Of a DNA stretch of 64,000 nt, positions 1 through 16,631 are shown in pieces. Below the pieces are notes generated by a model. That model was given only the letters and a program-made list of their open reading frames with translations, was not told the origin of the DNA and ran no database searches. Position 1 is the first letter of the stretch. Every line of letters begins with the position of its first letter. The stretch comes from Pseudomonadota bacterium (lineage in GTDB: Bacteria; Desulfobacterota; Anaeroferrophillalia; Anaeroferrophillales; Tharpellaceae). The translations under genes and the position numbers were made by a program. The stretch lies in contig DSCM01000096.1 in the NCBI GenBank assembly GCA_011049115.1, forward strand, positions 17,158-81,157, given 5' to 3'.

Positions 1-210
1 CTGCACCGGCATTACCGGGGCATTGATATCGGTATCGGCGAGCAAGTCCGGATTTTTGATCAGAGCATGTACATAATTATCTCCGCCGGTGGTTTTTTTG
101 GGCACCAGCAGGCTGCCGACCAGGTCACTTTCCAACAGCCTGGTTAAAAACGCTTGAATCTCGCCATTAAAGGAGTCAGCAGACAGATCAATGACTGTCG
201 TTTTCATTAT
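1..210 (-). CDS. Partial CDS (N-terminal ~70 codons; gene continues past the window start). N-terminus MKTTVIDLSADSFNGEIQAFLTRLLESDLVGSLLVPKK...NPDLL weakly resembles FrhB/FdhB/AsrA-family Fe-S flavoproteins
   Basis: ATG at ~208-210 on the minus strand, found by hand translation of the reverse complement. It is co-oriented with and immediately downstream of mvhD in the Hdr operon. Family assignment rests on weak pattern similarity only. Confidence 0.3.
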   Translation of the reverse strand, partial: MMKTTVIDLSADSFNGEIQAFLTRLLESDLVGSLLVPKKTTGGDNYVHALIKNPDLLADTDINAPVMPVQ

Positions 211-319: not shown

Positions 320-748
320 CTACAGATCCCATTCGGAAGCCAGCGGATTGGCTCCCTGATCCTGCAGGGCGGCATCGTATTGCCGAATCGTCTCCGCAAA
401 AAGGCGGCCCTCGCTGGCGCTGATCCAGCGCAGCCAGACCCGTTCCGGATCAAGGCCGACACTTTCCATAATCGTTCGCAGCAAGGCAATCCGGCGCCTG
501 GCCTTAAGATTACCGGTCTGGTAATGACAGTCACCGGGATGACAACCACCGATCAGAACCCCGTCGGCCCCGTCAAGCAGCGCTTTCAAAACATAAACAA
601 CATCAATCGCGCCGGAACACATCAGATGAATAATACGGATTCCGGCCGGATACTGCTGTCTGGTAGTGCCGGCCAGATCAGCCCCGGTATAGGTACACCA
701 GTGACAGAGAAAACCGACGATTCTTGGCTCAAAGTTAGGGTCTGCCAT
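320..748 (-). CDS. mvhD: MvhD/FlpD-like methyl-viologen-reducing hydrogenase delta subunit (Hdr-associated [2Fe-2S] protein)
   Basis: 142 aa with Cys pattern FLCHWCTY...HLMCSG...GGCHPGDCHY typical of MvhD. It directly follows the giant HdrA-like gene. Confidence 0.8.
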   Translation of the reverse strand: MADPNFEPRIVGFLCHWCTYTGADLAGTTRQQYPAGIRIIHLMCSGAIDVVYVLKALLDGADGVLIGGCHPGDCHYQTGNLKARRRIALLRTIMESVGLDPERVWLRWISASEGRLFAETIRQYDAALQDQGANPLASEWDL

Positions 749-840: not shown

Positions 841-3800
841 TCAGCGCATCAGCTCGCGGCTGACGGCCATCACCTGCCCCTTGTCAAAACCAAGCTGCTG
901 GGTTGCGCCGTTGGGACAGACTGCGGCGCAGGCGCCGCAACCGTGACAAAGGTCGTAATAAACTTCAGCGATCATGGAGCTGAGGTTTATTTGCCGGGCC
1001 CCATAAGGGCAGGCTTCGACACAAAGGCCGCAGCCGCTACATAATCTATTACTGACCTGCACTGCATTTTTAGCGGGGCTCCTTTGCCTGCGGGCCAGAA
1101 CTGTCGCCGCCCGGGAAGCCGCCGCCCGGGAACGAATCAGGGTCTCCTTGATATGCAGCGGGGCCGAGGCCAGGCCGCAATGATAACGCCCCTCGCCGAC
1201 AAAATCAACCAGCGCGGCCTTGCTGTTGGCTTCGGCAAAAAAACCGTACTCATCACGCGGCAATGAAAAGATCTGAGCCAGATCAGCAAAATCCGAGGGC
1301 ACGATACCGGTACTCAAAATCAGCAGATCAGGCCGCAAAGTGACCTTATTTTTCAGAATAAGATCATTGTAACTCAGTTGCAGGGCTGAGCCGACCAGCT
1401 CGACCCGAGGTTTATCCAAAACTTCATAAGGGGTAAACAACACCCCTTGTTCCCGAGCCAGGCGATAATAATCCTCATACAGGCCGTAGGCCCTCAGGTC
1501 ACGATAAAGAACCGTAATCTCGATGGCGAAATCAAGTTCCTTGAGCTTTAAGGCATTTTTTAAAGCCTGTGTACAACAAACCCGGCTGCAATATTCAAGT
1601 TTCCCGGCTTCCCTGGAACCGACGCACTGAATCATAACAATCCGGCGGCTGGAGGCCAGGGTATCAGGCCTGGTCGCAATCCGTTCTTCCAGTTCACTCT
1701 GGGTCAAAACCCGCTCGTCCTGACCTCTAAGGTACTCGTCAGTTACAGCTTCATGGCCTCCGGGCGCCATAATCATGATTCCGTGTTTAATCAGGCGTTC
1801 ACTTTCCTGGCATTCAACCCGAGTGACATAACTCCCAACCCGCCCCTGATGCGCCAGCAAACGTGTATTAAGCAGCACTTCAATACGCGGTTCGGACTCA
1901 ACCCGAGCTCTCATGATAGCCAGTAGCTGCGACGGTTGGGAACCCTCAAGGGTGTAATAAGATTTACGCAAGCGCCCGCCCAGCTCCCCGGTTTTTTCCA
2001 CCAGGGTCACCTGATAGCCGCGACCGGCCAGGGAAAGGGCGCTATTCATCCCGGCAGCTCCACCTCCGACAACCAAGGCCCGTGCTTCCATCACCAGATT
2101 TTGCGTCGGAGCCGGCAAGGTCCGGTAAACCGTCGTGAGAGCGGCAGCAAGCAAGGCCCTGGATTTTTCAAATATAATTTCAGGGCTGCCGGCGTGAACA
2201 AAAAGATTTTGTTCACGCAAATTGGCCACGGCGAAAGCGTTGCGGTTAAAACCGATATCCTCGGCAAAGGCATCAAGTGAACGTTCCAGTTCACGCCCCG
2301 TGCAACCGCCGATGATGATCCGGTTCAAACCATGGGCTCCGATAAAACGGCGCAGACCAAGCAGACCTTCCGGGGCGCATAGATTATCAACTACTTCAAC
2401 GCAGGCCACGGCCGGACGTTTGACAAACTCTTCGGCAAGCGAAGACAGATTGAGCTCCTCCGTCATGGCGCCGTCACAGGCGCAGAGAAAAATTCCGATC
2501 TTCGGTTCTTCCAACCAGACTCCGGTAGGGCTCAAATTAAAGCCATCAAGCTCGGTCTCATTTTCCTCGCTTTCAGGTTCGGCCAGATCCACTGCCACCG
2601 CATCCGCCGCCGCCGCCGCCTCCATCACGGTTTCCGGAATATCCTTAGGACCACAAAAAGCTCCGGCGGCGTAAAGCCCCGGAATTGAGGTCTGCGTCGG
2701 AACGAACTCACCGGTTCGACAGAAACCGTAGTCATCCAGTTCAATTCCGGTCGCCGCGGCAAAATCAAGTTTGGGCGCATCAAAACCCAGGGAAAGAACC
2801 ACCAGGTCAACCTGATCTTCAGCAAAACCGCGACCATCATCGTAGACCAGACTTAAGCCGCCGGTGCGCGGATCTTCCTTGACTGTCGAGACTATCGAAC
2901 GTCGATATTCAATCGCCAATTCATCCTTGGCGCGGTTGAAATAACGCTCGTAATCCTTGCCCATGCCGCGCAGATCCATGTAGTAAACGACAACTTCGGT
3001 TTCAGGACTTCTTTCACGAACAAACATCGCCTGTTTGGTCGCATACATGCAACAAACTGCGGAACAATAGCCCCGGCCACAGGAAACATCGCGGGAACCG
3101 ACACATTGAATAAATGCGATGCGCTTGGGGATCGAACCATCCCGGGGAGAAATCGGGGTTCCCCGACTCGGACCGGAATAACTGATCATACGCTCAAACT
3201 GACGGCTGCTGACCACGTTCTGATAACGTCCGAAACCATACTCTTCTTTTAAAGCCCCATCGACCAGAGAAAAACCGGGGGTCAGAAGAACGGCATCGGC
3301 CTCAAGATCTTCTTCATAAGGGGTTACGGCTTCAAGGTCAATTGCCTGAGTCGGACAGATATTGACACAGGCTCCGCATTTAGTGCAGTTTTCCAGATCA
3401 ATCCTATAGCCCGCTTTGACCATCTTTGGATATTGTTTGTAAATCGCCTTGCGTTCTTCCAACCCGCCGCTGAATTCAAAGGGCACGCTAACCGGACAAA
3501 CCTCAACACAGCGACCGCAATCGATACAGTCTTCCTGGGAAACACCGTACGGCGTAACCGCCAAGCGCAGGACGAAATTGCCGGGCTCCCCCTGTAGGGC
3601 CACAGGCCGGCTGCCGATCCGAATCTCCAGATTTTCATGCAGACGGCACTCGACGAAAGGGCAGTAAGCCGGTTGCTTCGGAGAAAGAAAGCAGACTCCG
3701 CAAGAATTGGTGGGAAACGTATTGTCCAAAAGCGAAAAAAAACCACCAATCGCCGCCTCTTTTTCCACCAGGGTAACCGCAAACCCCTGTTCAGCCAGCT

Positions 3801-3897
3801 GCAGGGCTGCCGTCATACCGGCGAAACCGGCCCCGATCACCGCCACCTTTTTGCGTTTATCATTAATCTTTTTGCTATGTTCAGAGGCCATTTTCAA
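841..3897 (-). CDS. Giant 1018-aa fusion of HdrA-like flavoprotein, MvhD-like domain and a second HdrA-like flavoprotein (HdrL-like)
   Basis: Two Rossmann FAD motifs (VAVIGAGFAGMTAA and ALVVGGGAAGMNSA). Two HdrA signature cysteine clusters (IQCVGSRDVSCGRGYCSAVCCMY and IQCVGSREAGKLEYCSRVCC). Several CxxCxxCxxxCP ferredoxin motifs. A central MvhD-like segment IGIFLCACDG...IIGGCTG. Confidence 0.8.
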   Translation of the reverse strand: MKMASEHSKKINDKRKKVAVIGAGFAGMTAALQLAEQGFAVTLVEKEAAIGGFFSLLDNTFPTNSCGVCFLSPKQPAYCPFVECRLHENLEIRIGSRPVALQGEPGNFVLRLAVTPYGVSQEDCIDCGRCVEVCPVSVPFEFSGGLEERKAIYKQYPKMVKAGYRIDLENCTKCGACVNICPTQAIDLEAVTPYEEDLEADAVLLTPGFSLVDGALKEEYGFGRYQNVVSSRQFERMISYSGPSRGTPISPRDGSIPKRIAFIQCVGSRDVSCGRGYCSAVCCMYATKQAMFVRERSPETEVVVYYMDLRGMGKDYERYFNRAKDELAIEYRRSIVSTVKEDPRTGGLSLVYDDGRGFAEDQVDLVVLSLGFDAPKLDFAAATGIELDDYGFCRTGEFVPTQTSIPGLYAAGAFCGPKDIPETVMEAAAAADAVAVDLAEPESEENETELDGFNLSPTGVWLEEPKIGIFLCACDGAMTEELNLSSLAEEFVKRPAVACVEVVDNLCAPEGLLGLRRFIGAHGLNRIIIGGCTGRELERSLDAFAEDIGFNRNAFAVANLREQNLFVHAGSPEIIFEKSRALLAAALTTVYRTLPAPTQNLVMEARALVVGGGAAGMNSALSLAGRGYQVTLVEKTGELGGRLRKSYYTLEGSQPSQLLAIMRARVESEPRIEVLLNTRLLAHQGRVGSYVTRVECQESERLIKHGIMIMAPGGHEAVTDEYLRGQDERVLTQSELEERIATRPDTLASSRRIVMIQCVGSREAGKLEYCSRVCCTQALKNALKLKELDFAIEITVLYRDLRAYGLYEDYYRLAREQGVLFTPYEVLDKPRVELVGSALQLSYNDLILKNKVTLRPDLLILSTGIVPSDFADLAQIFSLPRDEYGFFAEANSKAALVDFVGEGRYHCGLASAPLHIKETLIRSRAAASRAATVLARRQRSPAKNAVQVSNRLCSGCGLCVEACPYGARQINLSSMIAEVYYDLCHGCGACAAVCPNGATQQLGFDKGQVMAVSRELMR

Positions 3898-3937: not shown

Positions 3938-4768
3938 TTACGCGAAAAGTTGCGCCGGATCGTTAAAATGTTTTTTCCACCAGCGTGCCCGGTCCCCGAT
4001 TTGAAAGGCCTCGGCCATCAGTTCAGTGAAATAGAGAATCGGCAGACGCTGTTGTCGAATATCGACATTGGCCTGACACAGAGCGCAGGAAGTCACCAGA
4101 CAGTCAGCCTTGGCGGCCACAGCGTAATCGGCTATCTTATTGACCAGTGCAGTGGTTTTATGGGCATCAATCAGCCCCAGATCGCCACCACAGCAGTCAA
4201 CCTTGCAGGACCAGTCAAGAACCTCGGCTCCGAGATCCGCCATCATGCGGTCTATCCGCCTGGGATTTTCACAGCTGTCGACTCCGGTTACCGCCGCCGG
4301 CCGGACAATGGCGCAACCATAATAACAAACCACCCTCAACCCTTTTAAAGGCTTTCGCACCAATTTTTTAACCGCGGGGCGCAGCTCCTCGCGGGCCAGC
4401 AAATCAACCAGGGAAAGCATGGTTACGCGCTCATCATATTTAAATCCGAATTTTTCTTCAAAAAGAGCTCGCTGGGCTAAATCATGCCGCAGAACATAGT
4501 CGGCCTGCGCCAGGTTACCATAGCAGCCGGCGCAAGGAATGACCAGGTCGCGCCCGCTTTTCTGCGCTTCGCCGACGTTGAAGGCGGAGAGCCCGAGAGC
4601 CAAGGACGACGAAAGGTTATGGGCCGAAGCGGCGCCGCAGCAGCACCAGTCATCCAGCTCCCGCAGTTCAATGCCGAGCGCCTTGATTACCGCCAGACTG
4701 GCTTCAATATACTCCATCGCGGTCGAATGCGAGGTGCATCCGGGATAATATGAATAGGTTTCACCCAT
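3938..4768 (-). CDS. hdrB: Heterodisulfide reductase subunit B-like protein (two CCG domains)
   Basis: 276 aa with YYPGCT, WCCCGA, VVCYYGC, CCGGDLG and TSCALCQ motifs. Confidence 0.85.
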   Translation of the reverse strand: MGETYSYYPGCTSHSTAMEYIEASLAVIKALGIELRELDDWCCCGAASAHNLSSSLALGLSAFNVGEAQKSGRDLVIPCAGCYGNLAQADYVLRHDLAQRALFEEKFGFKYDERVTMLSLVDLLAREELRPAVKKLVRKPLKGLRVVCYYGCAIVRPAAVTGVDSCENPRRIDRMMADLGAEVLDWSCKVDCCGGDLGLIDAHKTTALVNKIADYAVAAKADCLVTSCALCQANVDIRQQRLPILYFTELMAEAFQIGDRARWWKKHFNDPAQLFA

Positions 4769-4874: not shown

Positions 4875-5399
4875 CTATTTGCCGGCCTCATTGAAAATCT
4901 TTTTTACGGTTGCGAGATTCTTGCTCTTTTTCGGCAAGATCGGAATTTTACCTCTGAGGAAAAGTTTCAGACCGACATCCAGATCCGAGGTCAGGTTTTT
5001 ACTTCTCAGTTTATAGCTCATCAACATGGTCGCCTCATGCACCCGACCGAATCTTTTGATGCTGTCAATAAACGAGGTGTGCAGGGCCACGGTTGCCGGC
5101 TCAGCCGGAGCAATCCCCTCGGCCAGGCACAAGGCCCGCAGGGAATCCATAACCGGGGCGAGTCTGATTTCATTGGGACAGCGACTGCCGCAAGTCTCAC
5201 AGGAGACACACATCCAGATCGACTTGCTGTTCAAAAGCTCGTCCTTCATGCCGAGCTGAATCATGCGAACCACCACGTTGGGAGCAAAATCAAACTCCTT
5301 GACCATGGGACAGCCAACGCTGCATTTACGGCATTGGTAACAGAGATTCAGCGGCTGACCGCTTTCAGTCATCACTTTTTGCAGAAGGGTTTCAGACAT
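4875..5399 (-). CDS. hdrC: Heterodisulfide reductase subunit C-like 2x[4Fe-4S] protein
   Basis: CYQCRKCSVGCP and CVSCETCGSRCP motifs. The start was moved to the internal ATG (MSETLL), 4 nt after the hdrA stop; the listed upstream start overlaps hdrA. Confidence 0.75.
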   Translation of the reverse strand: MSETLLQKVMTESGQPLNLCYQCRKCSVGCPMVKEFDFAPNVVVRMIQLGMKDELLNSKSIWMCVSCETCGSRCPNEIRLAPVMDSLRALCLAEGIAPAEPATVALHTSFIDSIKRFGRVHEATMLMSYKLRSKNLTSDLDVGLKLFLRGKIPILPKKSKNLATVKKIFNEAGK

Positions 5400-5403: not shown

Positions 5404-7386
5404 TTACACCGCCTCGGCTTTGCCGGCAAAATCGCCGATCATCCGGATAAATTGACGGGAAGTCGAATTAATCAACTCACAGGCCTTGTTGGGACAGGCG
5501 GCAATGCAGGCGCCGCAACCCTGGCATACCGCCTGGTTGACCTCGGAAATCCGAGTAAAATTGTTCATCAGGCGAGCTCCGTAAGGGCAGATCTCGATAC
5601 AGATGCCACAGCCGCTGCAGACATCATTTTTAACTTCGGCAATCAGGGGATCGGCAATCAGGGTTTTATTGGAAAACATAGTCTGGATCTTGCCGGCTGT
5701 AGCCAGGGCTTGCGAGACCGTGTCAGTGATATCCTTGGGAGATTGCCCGCACCCGGCGAGATAGACTCCTTTGGTCGAACTTTCCACCGGATAGAGCTTA
5801 ATATGGGTTTCCGAGAGAAAGGCATCGCCGTCAATCGTGACGTTCATCTTTTTGGCAAGATCGCGAATCCCGGTCTTAGGTTCCATGGCCATGGCCAGAA
5901 CCACCAAATCCGCCTCAATCTCCAGCTGGCGGCTACTTAACGTATCACTGGCAAACACCTTGAGCATCCCGTCTTCCGGAATCACCCTGGCAACCCGACC
6001 GCGCACATAAACCAGTTTTTCATCCTCCATGCCCCGCTGAACGAATTCTTCAAAATCACGGCTGTCGGAACGAATATCCATGTAAGAGATATAGGCCGTA
6101 CCGGTTTTAACCTGGCGGCGGTAAAGCCGCGCCTGTTTTGCCGTATACATGCAGCAGGCGCGGGAACAGTACGCTTTATGACGTTCCGGATCACGAGAAC
6201 CGGCACACTGAATAAAGACCACGCTTTCAGGAACCTTACCATTCGAAGGACACACAACCCTGCCGCCGGTAGGACCTTTGGGATCAAGCAGACGTTCAAA
6301 AGTCAAGGCGTCGATGACATCAGGTATGTCACCACCTCCGTATTCGGGGAGATTGGCCGGGTTGTAAAGGTCATAGCCGGTAGCCATGACGATCGCTCCG
6401 ACAAATTCTTTCTGCAAGGCGGGAATCGCCCCAAGATCTATCGCTTTCTCGAGGCAGGCATCACTACATAAAGTACAGGGCTCGACCTCATGGGAAGGGG
6501 CAAAATGTAAACAATCTACCTGGCGCAAAACCGGAATACGGGAAGATTCAAACTGGTTGTAACGAAAGATAGCCCCACGCCGGCTGAGTCCGCGATTAAA
6601 TTCATCGGGATTCGATACCGGACAAACTTCAATGCATTTGCCGCAGGCCGAGCAACGGGCGATGTCGACAAAAGCCGGCTGACTGCGAATGGTAACATTG
6701 AAATTACCAACGTAACCTTCCAGGTTCTCGACCTCTGAACTAGTATAAACTTTTATTTTATGATGGGCGACGACCTCGGCAATCTTCTGTTCCAACATTT
6801 CGGGAACGTTTTGGAAATAGGGAAAAGTCTGACTGATCTGAGCCATGTGGCCGCCGATGGCCGGTTCCTTTTCGATAATCACCACTTCATAGCCGGCATT
6901 GGCCAGGTCAAGCGCCGACATGATCCCGGCGATACCGCCACCGACGACACAAACGCGCTTGGTAAGATCAATCGTGATTGTCTCCAACGGCAGATTTTCT
7001 TTAACCTTGTCAAGCGTCCCGGCAATAATATTGACCGCCTTGGCCGTGGCCAAGGGTTTGTCATTCTGATGAACCCAGCTGCATTGCTCCCGAATATTGG
7101 CGATTTCCAGCAAATAAGAGTTCAAACCAACCAAACCCGCCGCCTTGCGAAAGGTATTTTCATGCATGCGGGGCGAACAACAGGCCACCACCACACCATC
7201 CAACCCCTTTTCCACGATCGTATCCTTGACCTTCTGCTGACCGGGATCGGAGCACATATACATGTAGTTTTCGGCATGCACCACGCCGTCCATTTTCAAG
7301 GTCTCAGCCACGGCCTTGTCCACATCGACACTGCTGGCGATGTTGGAACCGCACCAGCAGACAAAAACACCTAGTTTCTTTTCCAT
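5404..7386 (-). CDS. hdrA: Heterodisulfide reductase subunit A (canonical full-length HdrA)
   Basis: 660 aa. N-terminal Cys-rich domain (VCWCGSN), FAD motif VCVVGGGIAGIMSA, inserted ferredoxin, signature IQCAGSRDPERHKAYCSRACCMY, and C-terminal CSGCGICIEICP / CQGCGACIAACP. Confidence 0.85.
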   Translation of the reverse strand: MEKKLGVFVCWCGSNIASSVDVDKAVAETLKMDGVVHAENYMYMCSDPGQQKVKDTIVEKGLDGVVVACCSPRMHENTFRKAAGLVGLNSYLLEIANIREQCSWVHQNDKPLATAKAVNIIAGTLDKVKENLPLETITIDLTKRVCVVGGGIAGIMSALDLANAGYEVVIIEKEPAIGGHMAQISQTFPYFQNVPEMLEQKIAEVVAHHKIKVYTSSEVENLEGYVGNFNVTIRSQPAFVDIARCSACGKCIEVCPVSNPDEFNRGLSRRGAIFRYNQFESSRIPVLRQVDCLHFAPSHEVEPCTLCSDACLEKAIDLGAIPALQKEFVGAIVMATGYDLYNPANLPEYGGGDIPDVIDALTFERLLDPKGPTGGRVVCPSNGKVPESVVFIQCAGSRDPERHKAYCSRACCMYTAKQARLYRRQVKTGTAYISYMDIRSDSRDFEEFVQRGMEDEKLVYVRGRVARVIPEDGMLKVFASDTLSSRQLEIEADLVVLAMAMEPKTGIRDLAKKMNVTIDGDAFLSETHIKLYPVESSTKGVYLAGCGQSPKDITDTVSQALATAGKIQTMFSNKTLIADPLIAEVKNDVCSGCGICIEICPYGARLMNNFTRISEVNQAVCQGCGACIAACPNKACELINSTSRQFIRMIGDFAGKAEAV

Positions 7387-8807
7387 TAAACCGCTTCCTG
7401 CTGCTTATTACGTCGTACAGAAGAAAGAAAAACCTGAGCTTTGCTGGATGCGGCGCTGCCCTGAGCCGCTGAATCGGCAATATCCTTGGCTCCCAGACAG
7501 CAACCCGCCAGATAAATCCCAGGCCGGCCGCTCTCGACCGGCGAGAGCTTATAGTTTTCCTCGATGAAAAAACCGTCTTTATTGGACTGCAGACCCAGGA
7601 TTTCAGCCAGCTCCTGCGCTCCCTCATTGGGAACCATGGCCGCCGCCAGCACCACCAGGTCGGCTGCAATCTCTATTTTTCTACCACTCAGGGTATCGGC
7701 TCCCTGCACTATAACCTTATCTCCTTCGCGGTAAAGACGGGCGGCCCGGCCGCGAATATAGATGAGCTCTTCTTCCGCTACCGACTGCTGGATAAACTGC
7801 TCATAACCCTTTCCGGTTGACCGAATATCAATATAAAAAATATAGACCTGGCCGTCATGAACCTTATGTTTGTAAAGGCGGGCGTGCTTGGCGGTATACA
7901 TACAGCAGACCCGGGAACAATAGGATTTATGAAACTCAGGATTCCGTGAACCGACACACTGGATAAAAACAATCTCTTTCGGAGTTTTCCCGTCGGAAGG
8001 GCGAACCATGGCTCCGGCCGACGGCCCCGAGGCGGAAAGATAGCGCTCAAAGGTCAGACCGTCGATGACATCGGGAATCTCGCCACCTCCGAATTCAGGC
8101 ATCTTCTTTTTCCAGTCGTAAATATCGAAACCAGTGGCCACGATAATGGCTCCAACCTGAACCTCGAAGAAACTTTCCTGCTGCTCGTAATCAATCGCCC
8201 CGACCGGACAGACCTTGGCGCAAACCCCACATTTACCCCTGGTTAGGTAGCGGCAGCGTTCAGCATCGATCACCGGCTTGTTTGGCACCGCCTGCGGCGA
8301 CAGCGTATAAATCGCGGTCATTTTACCGGCATCCCGTTCAAACATGGCGATCCCATTGCTCGGACACTTCTGAATACAGGTACCGCACCCGGTGCATTTA
8401 TTCCAGTCAACATAAGTTTTTTTCTGTCTGACCCGAATCGTGAAATTACCCGGTTCGCCTGTCAGGGCCTCTACCTCGCAACTGGTTTTCAGGGTAACCT
8501 TGGGATGCTGCCCCGACTCAACCGTTCGTGGGGTCAAAGTACACTGGGCGCAATCAAGCGTCGGAAAAGTCTCGGAAAGTTGCAGCATCCGACCACCGAC
8601 CGACGGTAGCCTCTCAACCAAAAGTACCTGATAACCGGCATTCCCGAGGTCGATAGCAGAGGTAATACCGGTGATTCCGCCTCCGATAACCATTACCCGA
8701 CGATCAACCGGAACGCTTTCAAAGTCGCTCATACCCCCGAATACGCAGGCGCAGGAAAGCTGTTCGCCTTTTTGTTCGCCGCTCAGTTCAATTATTTCAG
8801 CCATCAA
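7386..8807 (-). CDS. Truncated HdrA-like flavoprotein lacking the N-terminal and C-terminal ferredoxin domains
   Basis: 473 aa. FAD motif VMVIGGGITGITSA and signature IQCVGSRNPEFHKSYCSRVCCMY. Inserted ferredoxin CTGCGTCIQKCP / CGVCAKVCP. Its stop forms a TAATG overlap with the next hdrA start. Confidence 0.75.
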   Translation of the reverse strand: MMAEIIELSGEQKGEQLSCACVFGGMSDFESVPVDRRVMVIGGGITGITSAIDLGNAGYQVLLVERLPSVGGRMLQLSETFPTLDCAQCTLTPRTVESGQHPKVTLKTSCEVEALTGEPGNFTIRVRQKKTYVDWNKCTGCGTCIQKCPSNGIAMFERDAGKMTAIYTLSPQAVPNKPVIDAERCRYLTRGKCGVCAKVCPVGAIDYEQQESFFEVQVGAIIVATGFDIYDWKKKMPEFGGGEIPDVIDGLTFERYLSASGPSAGAMVRPSDGKTPKEIVFIQCVGSRNPEFHKSYCSRVCCMYTAKHARLYKHKVHDGQVYIFYIDIRSTGKGYEQFIQQSVAEEELIYIRGRAARLYREGDKVIVQGADTLSGRKIEIAADLVVLAAAMVPNEGAQELAEILGLQSNKDGFFIEENYKLSPVESGRPGIYLAGCCLGAKDIADSAAQGSAASSKAQVFLSSVRRNKQQEAV

Positions 8808-8819: not shown

Positions 8820-9695
8820 TCAGGAAACCAGACCCTTGTCCCGCAACAGCGGAAGCGGATCAATCAGATTACGCTCAAAGCCCAGATCTTCAGCGGGCAG
8901 ATCGAGGGCAATCGCCAGCAACTGGGTAAAATAGACTACCGGAATGGTTTTAAAGGCCGCATCGCTTTGCACAATCTCAGCTTGCCGGTCATCAAGATTA
9001 AACTGACATAAAGGACAAGTGGTGATCACCAGATCGGCTCCGTTGCCGGAAGCATTCCGGAGAATGTCACGCGAGCAGCGAGTTGCCGTTGTCATCGAGT
9101 GAACCGTCTGAAAAGCACCGCAGCATTCGATCCGGTAAGGAAAGGGCACCGGTTCACCGCCTAGAGCCCGAACAAAATCTTCAAAAATAGTCGGGTTTTC
9201 CATGGCATCAAGAGCGATCTCCTTGACCGGACGCAGCAGCAGGCATCCATAATAACAGGCCACCTTGAGACCGGCCAGAGGTTTAACCACCGTATCCTGC
9301 AAGACTTTAAAACCGATTTCATCGCGCAATACCTGGAGATAATGCAGAACATCAACCTCTCCATGGTATTGACGTTCAATAAAATCGGTAATCTTGCTCC
9401 GCCGCTCCTCGTCGTTGCGCATGACGTTGTTGGTGCGCTTAAGCACATTGAAACAGACCGAACAAAGCGTTACCAGCTTATTATCGCCCCGATCTTTGGT
9501 ATCGGCCAGAATCCTGGTCGGCCCCGACATCGCGATATGATAATCGTTGGTCAACGGAAAGGTTGCACCGCAACAGGTCCAGTCGGGCAGTTCGTCAAGC
9601 TCAAAACCCAGCTTCCGGCTGCATTCGCGACCGGCGTCATCAAGTTTCTTGGCCTTGGTATAAAGGGTACATCCGGGAAAGTATGAATACTTCAT
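8820..9695 (-). CDS. hdrB: Heterodisulfide reductase subunit B-like protein (two CCG domains)
   Basis: 291 aa with FPGCT, WTCCGA, VACYYGC, ECCGAF and TTCPLCQ motifs. Confidence 0.85.
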   Translation of the reverse strand: MKYSYFPGCTLYTKAKKLDDAGRECSRKLGFELDELPDWTCCGATFPLTNDYHIAMSGPTRILADTKDRGDNKLVTLCSVCFNVLKRTNNVMRNDEERRSKITDFIERQYHGEVDVLHYLQVLRDEIGFKVLQDTVVKPLAGLKVACYYGCLLLRPVKEIALDAMENPTIFEDFVRALGGEPVPFPYRIECCGAFQTVHSMTTATRCSRDILRNASGNGADLVITTCPLCQFNLDDRQAEIVQSDAAFKTIPVVYFTQLLAIALDLPAEDLGFERNLIDPLPLLRDKGLVS

Positions 9696-9712
9696 CTTTT
9701 ACTCTTGAGAAT

Positions 9713-10129
9713 TTAGAGTGGAAGGAACTTCCGATAGCCGCTGATCATCGCGATCTGCGGGGCCCGGGCCAGATATTCTTTGGAAAAATCAGTAACATCA
9801 ATATGTGCCGTTCCGCCCACTTCGCGCAGACGCAAAACCCGCAGGGCCTCCATGATTTTAGAGATATCCACTCCCTTGGGACAGCGAGCCTGACACATCA
9901 TGCAGGCGGCGCAGACCCACATTGACTTACAGTCTTTAACTTCATTTTCCAGTCCAAGTTGCAGATAGCGCACCACCTGACTGGGCAGAAGGTCCATTTC
10001 ATCAACTGCGGGACAACCTGCCGAACAATTGCCGCATTGATAACAATTAAAGAAATTTTCGCCGCTGATCTCGGCGACCTTGTTGATGAAATCACTTTTT
10101 ACCTGGGAGCGGTAAATCCTGGTTTTCAT
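9713..10129 (-). CDS. hdrC: HdrC-like 2x[4Fe-4S] ferredoxin subunit
   Basis: 138 aa with CYQCGNCSAGCP and CAACMMCQARCP motifs. Confidence 0.8.
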   Translation of the reverse strand: MKTRIYRSQVKSDFINKVAEISGENFFNCYQCGNCSAGCPAVDEMDLLPSQVVRYLQLGLENEVKDCKSMWVCAACMMCQARCPKGVDISKIMEALRVLRLREVGGTAHIDVTDFSKEYLARAPQIAMISGYRKFLPL

Positions 10130-10142: not shown

Positions 10143-10700
10143 TTATCTGATATAGGGCTTAACGCCCTGTTCATACAAATCGTTACCGTAGATGTCATTG
10201 ATCACAACCACCGGAAAATCCTCGACCTCAATCCGACGAATGGCTTCCGGACCCAGATCTTCATAGGCGACAACTTCAGCCTTTTTTATACGCTGGGCGA
10301 GTAGTGCCCCAGCCCCGCCGGTCGCAGCGAAATAAACCGCATGATATTTTTCGATCGCATCACGCACTTCCCGGCTGCGACCGCCCTTGCCGATCATGCC
10401 CTTTAGACCTTCAGCCAGCAGTCGGGAAGAATAGGAATCCATGCGATAACTAGTAGTCGGACCGGCGGAACCGATAACCTTGCCGGGTTTAGCCGGAGTC
10501 GGCCCAACAAAATAAATAATCTCACCCTGCAAGGGTATCGGCAACGATTCTCCCTTAGCCAGGAGATCGACAAGCCGCTTATGCGCGGCATCGCGGCCGG
10601 TATAAATCGTACCACTGAGCAACACCCGATCGCCCGCTTTCAGATCAGCCACCACTCCTTCACTCAGCGGCGGCGTCAGACGAATAACCCGATCCATCAT
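10143..10700 (-). CDS. Class I (Fe-S) fumarate hydratase / tartrate dehydratase beta subunit (Fumerase_C-type)
   Basis: LSGTIYTGRDAAHKRL and GPTTSYRMD motifs. Start set at MMDRV, whose ATG overlaps the alpha-subunit stop in an ATGA arrangement. Confidence 0.75.
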   Translation of the reverse strand: MMDRVIRLTPPLSEGVVADLKAGDRVLLSGTIYTGRDAAHKRLVDLLAKGESLPIPLQGEIIYFVGPTPAKPGKVIGSAGPTTSYRMDSYSSRLLAEGLKGMIGKGGRSREVRDAIEKYHAVYFAATGGAGALLAQRIKKAEVVAYEDLGPEAIRRIEVEDFPVVVINDIYGNDLYEQGVKPYIR

Positions 10701-11548
10701 AAAATCGCCTCCTGGTGCCGGGCTGCATGACATTGAATATTAATCGCCAACGGCAAACTGGCAATATGACAGGGTTGCATTTTGACATGAACGGCAAAAC
10801 TGGTGATGCGACCGCCGAGCCCCTGGGGTCCGACTCCTAAATTATTGATCGCGGTCAAAAGTTCGTCCTCAAGATTTTGCAGAGCCGGATCGGGATTGGG
10901 GCTGCCGACTTCACGCAAAAGCGCTTCTTTCGCCAACATGGCCGACCGCTCGAAATTACCACCGATACCAACGCCGACAATTGTCGGCGGACAGGGATTC
11001 CCCCCCGCCTGGCGCACCCAGGCAACAACCTGCTCCTTAATCCCGGCAACGCCATCGGCCGGTTTGAGCATGACCACCTTCGACATATTTTCACTGCCAC
11101 CCCCTTTGGGGGCCACAATGATGCTTAATTGCTCTCCGGGCACAAGGTTGTAATGTATAATTGCCGGAGTATTATCGCCGGTATTGGCCCTGGTAAAGGG
11201 ATGACAGGCTGATTTCCGCAGGAACCCGTCCTGGTATCCCCGTCGGACGCCGGCATTGATTGCGCCCTCAAGACTGCCGCCGACAATTCTGACGTCCTGT
11301 CCCAAAGTAACAAAAACCACGGCCAGACCGGTATCCTGGCAGATCGGCACTTGCTCTTTTGCCGCGATTGCCGCATTTTCCTGAAGCTGCCTGATAATAT
11401 CCCCGCCGGCCGGAGACTCTTCCCTGGCGGCTGCCAGGTCCAAGGCCCGTTTCATATCCGACCCGAGATTACAATTAGCCTCTATACATAAACGAGCTAC
11501 CGTTTTTTCGACCAGCGAAACATCAATTTCACGCATTTTAAGCACCAC
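10697..11548 (-). CDS. Class I (Fe-S) fumarate hydratase / tartrate dehydratase alpha subunit
   Basis: 283 aa. N-terminal catalytic domain with the conserved CQDTG region and the archaeal-type two-subunit FumA/TtdA architecture. Confidence 0.75.
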   Translation of the reverse strand: MVLKMREIDVSLVEKTVARLCIEANCNLGSDMKRALDLAAAREESPAGGDIIRQLQENAAIAAKEQVPICQDTGLAVVFVTLGQDVRIVGGSLEGAINAGVRRGYQDGFLRKSACHPFTRANTGDNTPAIIHYNLVPGEQLSIIVAPKGGGSENMSKVVMLKPADGVAGIKEQVVAWVRQAGGNPCPPTIVGVGIGGNFERSAMLAKEALLREVGSPNPDPALQNLEDELLTAINNLGVGPQGLGGRITSFAVHVKMQPCHIASLPLAINIQCHAARHQEAIL

Positions 11549-11893: not shown

Positions 11894-13081
11894 TTAATTT
11901 TTAGACTGCAGTACCTCCGCTGGGACCACAGCTTCTACAGACCACTCCTCGGGAATAATCTGGCCAGGTTTTTCGCCATTTTTCTCCTTGATCTTAGACA
12001 ATTCAGGACGTTTAAAATCCTCCCGAACATGCTTTGGAATGCGGCCATTAAGAATCGATTCCGAACGCAGGCGACGACCAACCGTGCGTTCCATCATGGT
12101 GCCCAGCTGGAGAATCCGGTCAATGTCAATTCCGGTTTCGATTCCCATCTCGTCCATCATTACCAACATGTCTTCAAGAACGGAAAGACCAACCACATTA
12201 GGATCCTTGTAGTAGTAGTCTCCGGTCCCCAAACCCGGGACTCCGTCAACAAAATTAGCCGGCTGGCCACCAGTACCGCCGATGGTTGCTTCAAAGTTAG
12301 TGATTCCCGCCTGTAATGCCGCCAAAACATTGGCGTTGCCCCATCCCCGGGTGACATGAAAATGAGCGACATGAAGATCTGGATTGGGAAGAGCGTCCAG
12401 AATCATCGAGAAATAGCGATAGACTTTGTTCGGCGGAGCCGATCCATCATGGTCAGCATGCTCGATATCATCAGCCCCGATACTGAGCCAGCGACGAGTA
12501 AACTCAACCGCGTCCTCAAATTTAGTCGGCCCGGAAATCGGACTACCCCAAATCGTACTGACAGTTCCGCACATTTTGATTCCGACATCATGGCACTTTT
12601 TAATGCAGCGTTCGGCTTCACGCCAGTACTGCGGCAAGGTTGAACGGGAATTGGCGAAATGATGCTGTTCGTCAGTCGAAACCATCATCAGAATACGATC
12701 CGGGCCATAACCGCGCTTTTTCATCTCGATGGCCCGATCAACCGCACTTTCCCGAATGGTAATACAAGTCCATTCGATATCTTCATGTTTAATTCCACGC
12801 TTGGCCAAACGTTTCTTAAAAAGATCGTCATGCACGCTCTTCATTAACTCTTCGGCGTCTTCAAACTGAGGCATATTCCTGGGGTCGCCCAGATTGGTAA
12901 CCTCCATCCGTTTAATACCGGCAAATGCCATTTCCTGCAGATAAAAAATTTTGGCCCGGGTGGGAATAAAGTGTTCCTCATGCTGGAATCCGTCACGGAC
13001 AGTAATATCACCAATATTGACTTTTTTCGGCATTCTTTTAAAAACATCAAAAAGATCGTGGCTTGACATATTTTCCTCCAC
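11894..13081 (-). CDS. Divergent HMG-CoA lyase-like (DRE-TIM metallolyase family) protein with extra N- and C-terminal regions
   Basis: RDGFQ and HFHVTRGWGNANVLAALQAG motifs, parallel to the RDGxQN and HxHDTxG motifs of HMGL. 395 aa with a ~60-aa lysine-rich C-terminal tail. Confidence 0.55.
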   Translation of the reverse strand: MEENMSSHDLFDVFKRMPKKVNIGDITVRDGFQHEEHFIPTRAKIFYLQEMAFAGIKRMEVTNLGDPRNMPQFEDAEELMKSVHDDLFKKRLAKRGIKHEDIEWTCITIRESAVDRAIEMKKRGYGPDRILMMVSTDEQHHFANSRSTLPQYWREAERCIKKCHDVGIKMCGTVSTIWGSPISGPTKFEDAVEFTRRWLSIGADDIEHADHDGSAPPNKVYRYFSMILDALPNPDLHVAHFHVTRGWGNANVLAALQAGITNFEATIGGTGGQPANFVDGVPGLGTGDYYYKDPNVVGLSVLEDMLVMMDEMGIETGIDIDRILQLGTMMERTVGRRLRSESILNGRIPKHVREDFKRPELSKIKEKNGEKPGQIIPEEWSVEAVVPAEVLQSKN

Positions 13082-13268
13082 ACAATTATTCTTCTGATTA
13101 ATTTCCGGAAATCTTACCTACCCCCGCTGCTGATCTTTGGTATCTACCGATCAAGACCAACAAGAATACGGAACGGGCGCCTGCCACCCAAATCTTTCCG
13201 GATTAAAAGAACTCTGGCTCCGCCTGATCGATGTAATTCAGTCAATCTTAAGATAGGCGGGGCGTAAA

Positions 13269-16596: not shown

Positions 16597-16631
16597 GCGC
16601 CTCGTATTAAGTTTGACAGTTGGAAAACCAA

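Follow-up and report, generated by a model that had tools for sequence, protein, structure and literature searches.

The gene at positions 841 to 3897 on the minus strand of the window (the whole stretch of DNA analysed, 64,000 nt in length) encodes, to judge from its sequence, a type II (fused) HdrA, a single chain equivalent to an asymmetric HdrA heterodimer. This two-module architecture is already published for type II HdrA, ANME HdrA3/4, the HdrA of Sporomusa and Moorella, and BamE; its publication dates back to 2022 at the latest, and the novelty implied by an earlier note on this DNA does not hold. The gene context is less ordinary than the architecture, as the gene lies in a conserved operon alongside genes for a predicted soluble fumarate reductase. 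We propose that the fused HdrA forms the core of a complex that bifurcates electrons, with fumarate probably serving as high-potential acceptor, a role of fumarate that we infer from the conserved gene context. Taken jointly, the reading of a type II HdrA pseudo-heterodimer within the operon of a soluble bifurcating fumarate reductase is the best one and appears reasonably likely; if it is true, the operon would be a soluble electron-bifurcating fumarate reductase placed between fumarase and succinyl-CoA synthetase. The observation made in the earlier note is partly confirmed, and its interpretation is partly supported.

The fused hdrA gene

The open reading frame comprises 1018 codons from a TTG at 3897, with its stop codon at 841-843. 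The frame described in the earlier note, in which the strand was unstated, is thereby borne out; the probable start is the ATG at 3891 (codon 3), which is preceded by an AAGGG ribosome-binding site and yields the 1016-aa form used by gene callers. Residues are numbered here from the TTG, and the 1016 numbering, from the ATG, is lower by 2. Against the NCBIfam HdrA2 model the whole protein scores at E = 1e-198, in three stretches, and the separate halves at 1.5e-111 (N-half) and 1.5e-87 (C-half), a signal far above chance; every piece scores as HdrA when searched alone. In a phmmer search of the PDB, residues 16-441 match HdrA residues 152-568, residues 462-644 match 1-183 and residues 847-1006 match 477-639. 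The earlier proposal that two HdrA-type FAD modules are joined covalently in a single-chain HdrA 'dimer' is upheld, both halves scoring as HdrA. The same is true of the assignment of the second half to HdrA and not to GltD/NfnB as in HdrL, its GltD-type similarity being limited to the Rossmann fold, with no GltD domain.

It is extremely improbable that the frame arose from adjacent hdrA genes joined by a frameshift, or that the protein is an HdrL composed of HdrA and an NfnB/GltD half. Such gene pairs do exist in this genome, as the adjoining split pair (472 and 660 aa, with a 1-nt overlap) illustrates. However, two or more contigs assembled independently of each other (ENA and Logan) encode the identical 1016-aa protein, and full-length collinear relatives of ~1000 aa in one frame occur at 76 species-level loci, all from MAGs, so that the gene is no frameshift artefact. 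The orthologues checked for frame are each continuous, and the protein's length and collinearity recur in more than 100 clusters formed at 50% identity. A frameshift or assembly artefact and an HdrL are both refuted by the independent contigs, the continuous orthologues and the HdrA-scoring second half. In total, 80 genomic loci were retrieved for the subfamily, every one from uncultured organisms, and many carriers bear the label Syntrophaceae, Syntrophorhabdus or Syntrophobacterales in their MAG records.

Two complementary modules

Module 1 is a TrxR-like FAD domain (2578..3897, minus strand; residues 1-440) that aligns to residues 152-568 of HdrA (5ODC), and in this alignment neither the N-terminal domain nor the C-terminal ferredoxin domain is represented in it. 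It carries GAGFAG at residue 22, the FAD motif GPKDIPE, E235 and K288 (equivalent to HdrA K409), the CxxC pair C66/C69 (HdrA Cys194/197), an additional Cys pair C79/C84, and CVGSRD...YCSAVCC at 265-283, which provides a [4Fe-4S] site (C265/278/282/283). Inserted in it is a ferredoxin domain (3313..3561, minus; residues ~113-195) with two CxxCxxCxxxCP motifs (C124-C134 and C171-C181). An acidic linker (2515..2577, minus; residues 441-461), unaligned to HdrA and with a pLDDT below 50 over 440-458 (1016 numbering) in the AlphaFold model, leads to module 2, which spans residues 462-1018. Module 2 begins with an HdrA N-terminal-type [4Fe-4S] domain (2098..2514, minus; residues 462-600) that aligns to 5ODC residues 1-131 and has four invariant Cys (C472, C474, C507 and C532). 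The second TrxR-like FAD domain (1078..2097, minus; residues 601-940; HdrA2 model E = 1.4e-48) follows, with GGGAAG at residue 611, CVGSRE...YCSRVCC at 758-775, the [4Fe-4S] site C758/770/774/775, and K780. In a five-way alignment with 5ODC it is devoid of both the CxxC and an inserted ferredoxin domain, and its FAD motif reads APLHIKE, a diverged form with APLHI where module 1 has GPKDI. The C-terminal ferredoxin domain (844..1077, minus; residues 941-1018), with two CxxCxxCxxxCP motifs at 953 and 984, aligns to 5ODC 568-639, and the cofactor total by motif count is two FAD and seven [4Fe-4S].

The Rossmann motif and the CVGSR(D/E)...YCS.VCC cluster reported earlier are therefore found in each half. 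The four ferredoxin motifs are present as well, but the pairs at 124/171 (module 1 only) and 953/984 (module 2 only) belong to different HdrA domains and are non-equivalent; the modules are therefore complementary. The description 'two complete HdrA modules' does not fit, each being devoid of parts held by the other, including the CxxC of module 1. Residues 462-600, previously taken for an internal MvhD-like domain and a built-in MvhD electron entry, are HdrA's own N-terminal domain: they match positions 1-131 of the NCBIfam HdrA models (E = 3.8e-16), with no Pfam FlpD match even at E ≤ 1 and no match to the VhuD/MvhD model or to the MvhD part of the HdrA2 model. The HdrA N-terminal domain is named 'MvhD-like' in the literature by virtue of its fold (PMC9430772), and in HdrA and BamE this [4Fe-4S] domain lies on the low-potential exit path to the inserted ferredoxin. 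The AlphaFold model (pLDDT 85.1, pTM 0.86) has HdrA chains as its best Foldseek matches, with TM 0.78-0.90 for both halves, and the pTM, together with analogy, suggests a pseudo-dimer geometry for the two FAD domains.

Conservation and asymmetry of the modules

No variation is seen across 60 homologues (43-74% identity) in the two GxGxxG motifs, in C64/C67 and K778 (1016 numbering), or in any of the 28 cluster Cys, among them all eight of the inserted ferredoxin domain and those of the C-terminal ferredoxin domain; E235 and the extra pair C79/C84 are likewise invariant, and K286 (1016 numbering; K288) is conserved in at least 90%. The two flavin sites differ over a wider range. Among 106 diverse fused HdrA representatives, the module 1 signature is kept almost throughout (Lys 105/106, Glu 104/106), whereas in module 2 Lys is found in 67/106 and Glu in 76/106, with Q, R, E or A as replacements. 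All 60 sequences of its own subfamily have K780, and 90% or more of them retain the Glu that pairs with it, so that the second FAD may still have a catalytic role. The idea of two hard-wired bifurcating FADs, put forward in the earlier note, is nevertheless not supported, given these module 2 counts and the fact that only the module 1 FAD bifurcates in BamE.

A conserved operon with a Tfr-like fumarate reductase

The standalone mvhD announced downstream is indeed there (320..748, minus; 142 aa; Pfam FlpD E = 1.6e-48), 92 nt from the fused hdrA; it encodes a [2Fe-2S] adaptor and lies directly downstream of the fused gene in 65/65 loci. It is followed by the 5' end of an fdhB-like gene (1..207, minus), which is cut by the window edge and encodes 382 aa in the full contig. 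Among solved structures, its product is closest to FdhB subunits from Hdr-Fdh complexes, namely 9t1s_M (2e-31), 7bkb_E and 8rvu_E, and the gene is present in 55/58 loci; conceivable substrates of the FdhB-like subunit are NAD(P)H, F420H2 or ferredoxin. On the other side of the fused hdrA lie hdrB2 (3938..4768, minus; 276 aa; Pfam CCG), found in 64/67 loci and matching the NCBIfam SdhE-like (6.5e-38) and HdrB (7.5e-33) models, in each case under the model cut-off, and hdrC2 (4875..5399, minus; 174 aa; two [4Fe-4S]), found in 61/63. The module hdrC-hdrB-fused hdrA-mvhD-fdhB-like is near-invariant. Further upstream are a type I hdrA (5404..7386, minus; 660 aa) and a short hdrA' (7386..8804, minus; 472 aa), which combines an FAD domain with the inserted ferredoxin domain and a CxxC but is devoid of N- and C-terminal domains; these two genes, overlapping by 1 nt, are the split counterpart of the fused HdrA. 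They are preceded by hdrB1 (8820-9695, minus) and hdrC1 (9713-10129, minus), and both HdrB1 and HdrB2 retain two complete CCG motifs. The co-directional cluster starts with a class I fumarase, beta and alpha subunits (10143..11536, minus; Pfam Fumerase_C and Fumerase), which is upstream in 35/50 loci.

All 15 genes of the cluster are co-directional, with intergenic gaps of -4 to 191 nt. Its flanks hold fumarase and succinyl-CoA synthetase, as well as malate dehydrogenase in one locus (L004), and genes for an HMG-CoA-lyase-like protein, an enoyl-CoA hydratase and an acyl-CoA dehydrogenase lie upstream. The split HdrA pair, the fumarase and a Tfr-like fumarate reductase accompany the module in 34/45 loci with enough flank: the type I hdrA' pair occurs together with the tfrA-like gene in 34, neither is found alone in any, and both are absent from 11. 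These 11 loci have the fused module without any Frd, and fumarate is therefore no general partner of this HdrA clade.

The flavoprotein of the operon has TfrA as its best family match and contains the motifs HPTG, RGxG, HYxxGG and NRLxGNSL, with a score of 323 bits that is well under the curated TfrA cut-off of 718 bits; the FeS subunit carries a TfrB-type set of clusters, [2Fe-2S] and two [4Fe-4S]. In the Frd/Sdh family, loss of the covalent FAD abolishes succinate oxidation while fumarate reduction is retained. The position of the covalent-FAD His is occupied by Asn in 47/47 orthologues, which therefore favours fumarate reduction over succinate oxidation. The docking site of the Frd cannot be read from gene order because its genes are placed on the operon's donor side, where they adjoin the fdhB-like gene and not hdrB.

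Proposed mechanism and alternatives

[quoted passage not shown] The high-potential electron would leave through the module 1 cluster to HdrC2/HdrB2. The low-potential electron would travel by way of the CxxC, then the N-domain cluster, as far as the inserted ferredoxin domain, from which either ferredoxin or the adjoining type I HdrA'/HdrA-HdrB1C1 module would take it up. Module 2 would mainly be a scaffold, in the role of the second HdrA protomer of methanogens. Fumarate would be reduced by a split Tfr-type enzyme consisting of the TfrA-like flavoprotein, the [2Fe-2S]+2[4Fe-4S] subunit and a CCG-type HdrB.

It could instead be hypothesised that both flavins bifurcate, with two tandem flavin-based bifurcations in a single polypeptide. 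The conservation of K780 and its Glu within the subfamily is in line with this; PMC12054007 uses the same K409/E356 criterion to argue the case for the type II HdrA of archaea, an earlier proposal of this kind for BamE is cited in a passage of PMC9430772, and the second, type I HdrA pair in the operon would make multi-stage bifurcation conceivable. We nonetheless consider it unlikely, as the second FAD of BamE lies off the branch point and is non-bifurcating (10.64898/2026.04.10.717634), the module 2 Lys is dispensable across the superfamily, and module 2, with its diverged FAD motif, would have no low-potential exit of its own without the CxxC and the inserted ferredoxin. The complex might also work oxidatively, as a succinate dehydrogenase that confurcates, with succinate and reduced ferredoxin feeding a mid-potential carrier; this would ease the difficult succinate oxidation in the methylmalonyl-CoA pathway of syntrophic or sulfate-reducing propionate oxidisers. 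The position between fumarase and succinyl-CoA synthetase, the acyl-CoA-related genes upstream, the syntroph-type labels of many carriers and the reversibility in principle of HdrA systems (PMC12054007) are compatible with it, but the Asn in place of the covalent-FAD His and an estimate that the reaction is uphill at standard conditions make this direction rather improbable.

It is similarly doubtful that there is no Hdr-Frd supercomplex, and that the Tfr-like enzyme with one HdrB/HdrC pair reduces fumarate with a dithiol, the disulfide being re-reduced by the fused HdrA-HdrBC-MvhD-FdhB-like assembly with bifurcation to ferredoxin, in a bacterial version of the methanogen-type Tfr/Hdr cycle. 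The CCG motifs of each HdrB constitute intact disulfide-reducing sites by motif, a passage of PMC11223495 describes Methanothermobacter TfrB as an FrdB-like and CCG fusion that oxidises CoM-SH and CoB-SH, and the fused module occurs without Frd in the 11 loci mentioned above. However, no candidate gene for a thiol carrier was found in the operon, the HdrB-like site of BamD binds no heterodisulfide and hands electrons to a protein partner, and the 34/0/0/11 co-occurrence and the tight operon suit a single assembly at least equally. That the protein is an orthologue of BamE or of the HdrA of MetFV-HdrABC-MvhD is highly improbable and is contradicted by gene context. The domain order and motif-based cofactor count are those of BamE, and P0185, a fused HdrA in an hdrCB-MTHFR-hdrA-mvhD-metV-metF cluster, is collinear at 36% identity; yet within ±10 kb there is no AOR-type bamB/bamC, long Sec-containing BamF, fused BamD or adjacent BamGHI, nor any MTHFR or MetV, and P0185 has a degenerate inserted ferredoxin domain and is devoid of the extra Cys pair.

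Comparison with known systems

Archaeal type II HdrA and BamE are compared with the fused HdrA through their published descriptions. The former, from methane- and alkane-metabolising archaea (PMC12054007), is equivalent to the fused HdrA3/4 of ANME (PMC9012536) and is a fusion of two type I classes, A6-like (without N- and C-terminal domains) and A12 (PMC12054007). It shares with the protein studied here two TrxR-like FAD domains in one chain, a complementary distribution of the N-terminal domain and Cys197, K409/E356 equivalents in both halves, and clustering with hdrBC, mvhD and fdhB, in some cases with an extra type I hdrA. It differs in that the present protein is bacterial (candidate phylum Tharpellota and Desulfobacterota-like MAGs), that the ANME proteins begin with the module bearing the N-terminal domain (PMC9012536), here preceded by the module without it, and that the archaeal clusters encode a non-catalytic molybdopterin protein where the operon described here has the FrdB-like FeS protein and the TfrA-like flavoprotein. 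BamE, a fused HdrA dimer of ~1000 aa in the Geobacter metallireducens class II benzoyl-CoA reductase, has a bifurcating TrxR1 FAD (Lys280), a non-bifurcating TrxR2 FAD (Gln768), a Cys59-Cys62 pair beside cluster E3, and seven clusters (cryo-EM preprint 10.64898/2026.04.10.717634). The likeness extends to the N-terminal TrxR1 with its Lys (280 in BamE, 288 here) and CxxC (59/62 and 66/69), the inserted ferredoxin, the N-domain-type cluster, TrxR2 with its cluster, the C-terminal ferredoxin, the seven [4Fe-4S] and two FAD, and an MvhD-type adaptor encoded adjacently. Gln768 would be replaced by K780 here if the positions correspond, and the Bam partners, with the tungsten AOR BamBC among them, are absent within the ±10 kb given above.

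The HdrA of the MetFV-HdrABC-MvhD methylene-THF reductase, 942 aa in Sporomusa ovata and 1487 aa in Moorella thermoacetica (PMC9430772), shares the succession of an extra TrxR, an MvhD-like domain, a TrxR without inserted ferredoxin and a C-terminal ferredoxin, and the gene order hdrC-hdrB-hdrA-mvhD, with P0185 as a collinear MAG homologue. The S. ovata protein has five predicted clusters and the E/K signature at one flavin only, whereas seven clusters and both signatures are present here; the inserted ferredoxin domain is intact, the C79/C84 pair is invariant, and the partner is a fumarate reductase-like enzyme in place of MetFV. Canonical type I HdrA (5ODC; 7BKB, 8RVU) offers a counterpart for every domain, with 27-37% identity and the TM range given above, and the formate-dependent Fdh-Hdr complexes (7BKB, 8RVU) have MvhD and FdhB-like partners of the same kind. 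Canonical HdrA is, however, a symmetric homodimer of 650-aa chains with six clusters and one FAD each, whereas one chain forms here a predicted asymmetric pseudo-dimer with a single copy of each accessory domain. In sulfur-oxidising Gammaproteobacteria, tfrAB is interspersed with flxABCD-hdrABC in rTCA clusters, and direct electron delivery has been proposed (PMC6315080). What the two cases share is a TCA-related cluster that couples genes for a Tfr-type fumarate reductase to those for an Hdr-type bifurcating module. The gammaproteobacterial system is described with FlxABCD (NADH) and ordinary hdrABC (PMC6315080), whereas the operon described here has the fused HdrA with MvhD and an FdhB-like protein, a second HdrA'A-HdrBC set, and a TfrB split into FeS and CCG proteins.

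Architecture of the fused HdrA

The open reading frame at window 841-3897 exists as the earlier note described it and lies on the minus strand, which had been left unstated. It opens with TTG; two codons on, behind an AAGGG ribosome-binding site, stands an ATG that yields a protein of 1016 aa, the form found in the public gene calls (residues are numbered here on the 1018-aa frame, with an offset of 2, unless the 1016 numbering is stated). A joining of two genes by a frameshift, or an artefact of assembly, is ruled out by the presence of the exact 1016-aa protein on two or more contigs that were assembled independently (an ENA contig and a Logan contig) and by relatives that carry the gene in a single frame. 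The contig itself occurs, in exact form, in samples ERZ27245514 and SRR7787262. The scan of species-representative genomes gave 101 relatives, from which 80 loci were retained, 76 of the 80 with a full-length copy. The copies that seem split or over-long (loci L030, L061, L069, L071 and L074) are paralogue matches joined by the tool, and their genes are single-frame. All the motifs listed in the earlier note were found, namely the Rossmann motifs GAGFAG (residue 22) and GGGAAG (residue 611), the HdrA cluster motifs CVGSRD...YCSAVCC (265-283) and CVGSRE...YCSRVCC (758-775), and CxxCxxCxxxCP at residues 124, 171, 953 and 984. The standalone mvhD is likewise present at 320-748, 92 nt downstream of the fused hdrA (Pfam FlpD, E = 1.6e-48). 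The sequence observation of the earlier note is largely right; what needs correcting is the strand, which domains are equivalent, and what the internal domain is.

The correction of the domain equivalence concerns the claim of two complete HdrA modules. In phmmer searches against solved structures, residues 16-441 correspond to positions 152-568 of the canonical HdrA of M. thermolithotrophicus (5ODC), which form the TrxR-like FAD domain with its inserted ferredoxin domain; residues 462-644 correspond to 5ODC 1-183, the N-terminal domain and the start of the FAD domain, and residues 847-1006 to 5ODC 477-639, the end of the FAD domain together with the C-terminal ferredoxin domain. In a five-way alignment that includes 5ODC and both neighbouring HdrAs, the accessory parts are complementary between module 1 (residues 1-440) and module 2 (residues 462-1018). 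Module 1 holds the CxxC equivalent to Cys194/197 (C66/C69) and the inserted ferredoxin domain with its eight Cys, and is devoid of the N-terminal domain as well as the C-terminal ferredoxin domain. Module 2 possesses both of these (N-terminal Cys C472/474/507/532), its inserted ferredoxin domain is deleted, and 'SQPSQ' takes the place of the CxxC. The two modules share the TrxR [4Fe-4S] site (HdrA C386/399/403/404; C265/278/282/283 in module 1, C758/770/774/775 in module 2) and the equivalents of K409 (K288 and K780) and of E356 (E235 and a Glu within the TQSELEE segment); the FAD motif reads GPKDIPE in module 1 and, in a diverged form, APLHIKE in module 2.

The internal domain, which had been taken for a built-in MvhD entry point, matches positions 1-131 of the HdrA model (E = 3.8e-16); it gives no match with VhuD, with the region of the HdrA2 model that corresponds to MvhD (where the standalone MvhD does match) or, even at E <= 1, with Pfam FlpD. 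A true MvhD is thereby ruled out at the sequence level, and the feature alignment and the HdrA match identify this region as the ordinary N-terminal HdrA domain of module 2. An HdrL-type protein with a GltD/NfnB second half is also ruled out, in keeping with the earlier assignment of that half to HdrA: the best families for the C-terminal half alone are HdrA models (E = 1.5e-87 with HdrA2), and the match of GltD-type models to it is restricted to about 40 residues of the Rossmann fold.

By motif count, the fused chain carries two FAD and seven [4Fe-4S] clusters. Among 60 homologues of 43-74% identity, all 28 cluster Cys, both GxGxxG motifs, the CxxC (C64/C67 in the 1016 numbering), E235 and K780 (K778) are invariant, and K288 (K286) and the module 2 Glu are retained in at least 90%. 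Identity between the two halves is no more than 26-28%, which is in line with an ancient joining of distinct HdrA types rather than a recent duplication; the N-terminal half is 32% identical to each neighbouring type I HdrA. The AlphaFold2 model built with a homologue alignment has a pLDDT of 85.1 and a pTM of 0.86, with low confidence at residues 1-11, in the loop preceding the CxxC (51-63) and in the inter-module linker (440-458 in the 1016 numbering). Foldseek retrieved HdrA chains for both halves (8rvy_A, TM 0.78; 8rvu_a, TM 0.90).

Just past the CxxC, a six-residue insertion relative to 5ODC holds a further Cys pair, C79/C84, giving a C-x2-C-x9-C-x4-C pattern over residues 66-84 (window 3646-3702, minus strand). 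All of the 60 closest homologues keep the pair, whereas it is missing in the MetF-type representative P0185; across the wider superfamily C77 is found in 65/106 and C82 in 21/106 (1016 numbering). It could form an extra metal site or a second redox-active disulfide.

A bacterial member of a known architecture

The idea of a single-chain HdrA dimer is right in outline and already in print, and it is not a discovery. Fused HdrA3/4 and tandem HdrA pairs have been described in ANME, and the same was noted for Moorella HdrA (Chadwick et al, 2022; PMC9012536). The 942-aa HdrA of Sporomusa ovata has an extra TrxR, an 'MvhD-like domain', a TrxR without inserted ferredoxin and a C-terminal ferredoxin domain, and Moorella has a 1487-aa form with an added GltD domain (PMC9430772, 2022). 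The name 'type II HdrA' was given in 2025 to a fusion of two different type I classes, with K409 and E356 in both halves and clustering with hdrBC, mvhD and fdhB (PMC12054007). Finally, a 2026 cryo-EM preprint (PDB entries 29QY, 29RC and 29RN) shows BamE, from class II benzoyl-CoA reductase, to be 'a fused HdrA dimer' that holds clusters E1-E7; the bifurcating FAD lies in TrxR1 (Lys280), the TrxR2 FAD (Gln768) is non-bifurcating and mainly structural, and a Cys59-Cys62 pair approaches cluster E3.

The protein is an uncharacterised bacterial member of the type II fused-HdrA architecture. It has two TrxR-like FAD domains in one chain, each with a four-Cys [4Fe-4S] site, and both halves match HdrA models separately, as they do with Foldseek. 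The accessories are complementary in the type II manner (N-terminal FeS domain in module 2, Cys197 equivalent in module 1), the K409 and E356 equivalents stand in both modules, and the gene clusters with hdrB, hdrC, mvhD and fdhB (64/67, 61/63, 65/65 and 55/58 loci, respectively). A molybdopterin-family gene, which in a non-catalytic form is part of the archaeal consensus cluster, was not found within +/-10 kb in the contig of the window (L001) or in the relative loci L003, L004 and L005; yet this neighbour is published for only 14% of archaeal type II genes, and the feature is not strictly defining. A canonical type I protein would be a homodimer of chains of about 650 aa, each with one TrxR and with N-terminal, inserted and C-terminal FeS domains, as against two TrxR domains in 1016 aa here, and the scores with three HdrA models (662, 517 and 493 bits) stay under the curated cut-offs of 1100-1400.

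The likeness to BamE, known to us by description only, extends to the seven [4Fe-4S] clusters and two FAD and to the order TrxR1 with inserted ferredoxin, N-type cluster, TrxR2 and C-terminal ferredoxin. The surroundings differ: the tungsten AOR-type bamB/bamC, the fused HdrD-like bamD, the long Sec-containing bamF and bamGHI were not found within +/-10 kb in L001, L003, L004 and L005, MvhD is a 142-aa protein with Cys, and hdrB and hdrC are separate genes. Module 2 has Lys (K780) at the K409 position, to which Gln768 at the second FAD of BamE may correspond. The acetogen arrangement MetFV-HdrABC-MvhD, with metF and metV adjoining hdrCBA-mvhD, is not seen either, and no MTHFR/MetV domain lies within +/-10 kb of the fused hdrA in L001; the relative locus L087 is a contrasting case.

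The fused architecture is common, since a library search at E <= 1e-30 gave 1813 representatives (50% identity), among the best 150 of which most are collinear and about 950-1100 aa long, with some of 1300-1530 aa. Both bacteria and archaea are represented, Desulfosarcinaceae and Asgard archaea among them. Their contexts vary: P0185, collinear at 36% identity, belongs to an hdrCB-MTHFR-hdrA-mvhD-metV-metF cluster of the acetogen type, P0278 neighbours TusA, HdrCB-like and two-component genes, P0250 has an HdrD-like neighbour, and P0140 has an HdrD-like gene and more HdrA-like genes. About 30 of the best 150 (P0123, P0126 and P0129 among them) are 1200-1530 aa long, with an N-terminal extension of 300-670 aa, and match the query from about residue 120-200 through to the end. 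These long forms are probably of the Moorella type, with an added ferredoxin/GltD/TrxR part (PMC9430772). The protein adds a bacterial subfamily to an architecture already described and structurally solved; what deserves following is the connection, within the operon, to a Tfr-like fumarate reductase and a second, split HdrA pair.

Which flavin bifurcates

The Lys/Glu signature was followed in 106 diverse fused HdrAs. Module 1 retains the K409 equivalent in 105/106, the E356 equivalent in 104/106 and the TrxR [4Fe-4S] site in 106/106; the first and second Cys of its CxxC are present in 97/106 and 99/106. In module 2 the TrxR site (104/106) and the nearly invariant Rossmann motif persist, the Lys is found in 67/106 (otherwise Q, R, E or A) and the Glu in 76/106. 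The proposal of two bifurcating FADs in one polypeptide does not sit well with a second module whose Lys and Glu are so loosely kept and which is devoid of the CxxC and the inserted ferredoxin domain. Because this asymmetry and these deletions fit the BamE picture, we infer that module 1 would be the bifurcating site and module 2 a scaffold with an N-terminal-type cluster and a C-terminal entry domain. At the level of the subfamily, the second FAD might also be catalytic, since K780 is invariant among the 60 sequences and at least 90% of them retain the Glu partner. This subfamily, in which both flavins retain the bifurcation signature and the inserted ferredoxin domain is intact, is a good test case for second-FAD catalysis.

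A conserved operon with split and fused HdrA

The same co-directional row of genes is found in L001 and in three relatives (69%, 45% and 43% identity). It begins with fumarase alpha and beta, hdrC1, hdrB1, hdrA' (about 440-472 aa) and hdrA (about 650-660 aa), continues with hdrC2, hdrB2, the fused hdrA, mvhD and an FdhB-like gene (372-383 aa), and ends with an FeS protein (246-259 aa), a flavoprotein (552-559 aa) and often succinyl-CoA synthetase. Intergenic gaps in L001 range from -4 to 191 nt. Presence was counted over 76 species-level loci, each denominator being the loci with enough flank: mvhD occurs in 65/65, hdrB2 in 64/67, hdrC2 in 61/63, the fdhB-like gene in 55/58 and the tfrA-like flavoprotein in 39/50. 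The flavoprotein and the type I hdrA' pair are both present in 34 loci and both absent in 11, with no mixed locus. The 11 loci devoid of the flavoprotein carry labels such as Spirochaetota, Anaerolineae, Fibrobacterota and Planctomycetota, and several have two or three paralogous fused-hdrA modules in tandem.

Five loci labelled Spirochaetota or 'Thermotogae' (L045, L052, L062, L068 and L083) have three paralogous fused hdrA genes each, two of which have an mvhD and an frhB/fdhB-like gene of their own downstream, and no fumarate reductase was found in these loci. L062, the one examined, also holds a NuoE/F-like pair, a 1224-aa NuoG-HdrA fusion, a true FrhB and an FNR-like protein, a set reminiscent of the HydBC-plus-Hdr scheme in benzoyl-CoA reductase.

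Within one operon, the asymmetric HdrA heterodimer is present twice, once split and once fused. The split pair lies just upstream at 5404-8804 (minus strand), with a 472-aa hdrA' that has the CxxC and no N- or C-terminal domains, and a 660-aa hdrA that has the N-terminal domain, a C-terminal ferredoxin domain and no CxxC; the two genes overlap by 1 nt, and their own hdrC1/hdrB1 are at 8820-10129. The pair was rejected as the direct unfused parent, because its identity to the fused halves is just about 30% and the 660-aa protein retains an inserted ferredoxin domain. The two forms, side by side, offer a natural comparison for why fusion happens. Of the genes in the operon, it is the fused hdrA that evolves fastest when L003-L085 are compared with L001: close relatives show 63-73% identity, against about 75-92% for nearly all neighbours, and distant ones about 45%, against 55-75% for hdrA', mvhD and tfrA. 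The faster rate is common to hdrC2, hdrB2 and the fdhB-like gene.

Fumarate reductase partners and proposed function

Downstream of mvhD, at 13685-17542 of the contig and reaching beyond window position 1, follow the FdhB-like gene, the TfrB-like FeS protein, the TfrA-like flavoprotein, sucC and sucD. The nearest solved relatives of the FdhB-like protein are 9t1s_M (2e-31), 7bkb_E and 8rvu_E, FdhB subunits that link formate dehydrogenase via MvhD to HdrA. The best family of the flavoprotein is TfrA (323 bits, under the curated cut-off of 718 bits); it carries the Frd/Sdh catalytic motifs, and the position of the covalent-FAD His is Asn in 47/47 orthologues. By established Frd/Sdh biochemistry, non-covalent FAD argues for the reductive direction. 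In TfrAB, TfrA is a flavoprotein with the fumarate-site residues and TfrB unites [2Fe-2S], two [4Fe-4S] and CCG in one protein. Here the FeS protein has a [2Fe-2S] motif and two CxxCxxCxxxCP, the same clusters that TfrB has in its FrdB-like part, whereas the CCG part is on separate HdrB proteins; HdrB2 scores slightly higher with the SdhE model than with the HdrB model.

Flavin-based electron bifurcation is the function that we propose, from sequence, for the Hdr complex. Its strict association with a Tfr-like enzyme with non-covalent FAD, fumarase and succinyl-CoA synthetase suggests a possible electron-bifurcating fumarate reductase. In such an enzyme, a mid-potential donor would be oxidised at, or passed through, the FdhB-like subunit. 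The high-potential electron could then travel from the C265-type cluster through HdrC2/HdrB2 and the TfrB-like/TfrA-like pair to fumarate, and the low-potential electron could reach the inserted ferredoxin domain by way of C66/C69 and the N-domain cluster, and go on to ferredoxin or the second Hdr module. Taking E0' as about +30 mV (fumarate), -320 to -340 mV (NAD(P)H or F420H2) and -450 to -500 mV (ferredoxin), we estimate that bifurcating fumarate reduction is exergonic.

A more far-reaching reading, which we hold to be rather unlikely, would make the conserved 13-gene operon (fumarase, HdrC1B1, HdrA'/HdrA, HdrC2B2, fused HdrA, MvhD, FdhB-like, TfrB-like FeS and TfrA-like) an undescribed soluble supercomplex in which the split and fused HdrA modules, in series, couple fumarate reduction to very low-potential electrons. 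It would serve as the bifurcating fumarate reductase of the reductive TCA or methylmalonyl-CoA branch in uncultured Desulfobacterota-like bacteria, and the second FAD, with its invariant Lys, would perhaps be catalytic too. A bifurcating fumarate reductase, if true, would alter the energy balance of the reductive TCA branch and of propionate/succinate metabolism in widespread uncultured anaerobes. Our literature search for this Hdr-fumarate reductase operon found partial precedents and no description of it. In the flx-hdr-tfrAB arrangement, tfrAB is genomically coupled to an Hdr module in gammaproteobacterial rTCA clusters (PMC6315080), and SdhA lies near HdrA2B2C2 in Culexarchaeia; the Sdh/Frd clusters of Syntrophobacter are unrelated, and the Tharpella paper does not mention Hdr or fumarate.

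Host organisms and neighbouring genes

All 80 retained loci are MAGs. The closest full-length relatives (63-74% identity) come from MAGs that bear the labels Candidatus Tharpella, Thermodesulfobacteriota, Deltaproteobacteria and Pseudomonadota, with a single one under Spirochaetales; across the first 368 residues, a fragment from Candidatus Tharpella is 82% identical, and the 45% tier carries labels such as Syntrophaceae, Syntrophorhabdus, Syntrophobacterales and Anaerolineae.

The selenocysteine-specific elongation factor gene selB is at 19977-21920 (minus strand; TIGR00475, E = 7.5e-109), and the organism therefore makes selenoproteins. The MvhD and HdrA proteins of the operon have Cys, with no in-frame TGA, where some relatives have Sec. 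At 59949-62725 (minus strand), a NuoF-family flavoprotein (687 aa) and an FeS protein resembling HoxU and the N-terminus of NuoG (238 aa) form a module similar to HydB and the N-terminal part of HydA, akin to NADH modules. In L003 a paralogous NuoF/HoxU-like pair, 48% identical, lies directly upstream of fumarase; as a part of the operon in the window, the module was ruled out, the pair being about 56 kb away and only 48% identical to that of L003. Upstream of fumarase, at 11894-16397 (minus strand), lie genes for two HMG-CoA-lyase-like proteins, an enoyl-CoA hydratase and an acyl-CoA dehydrogenase, which hint at a pathway for branched-chain acyl-CoA or organic acids beside the Hdr-Frd operon.
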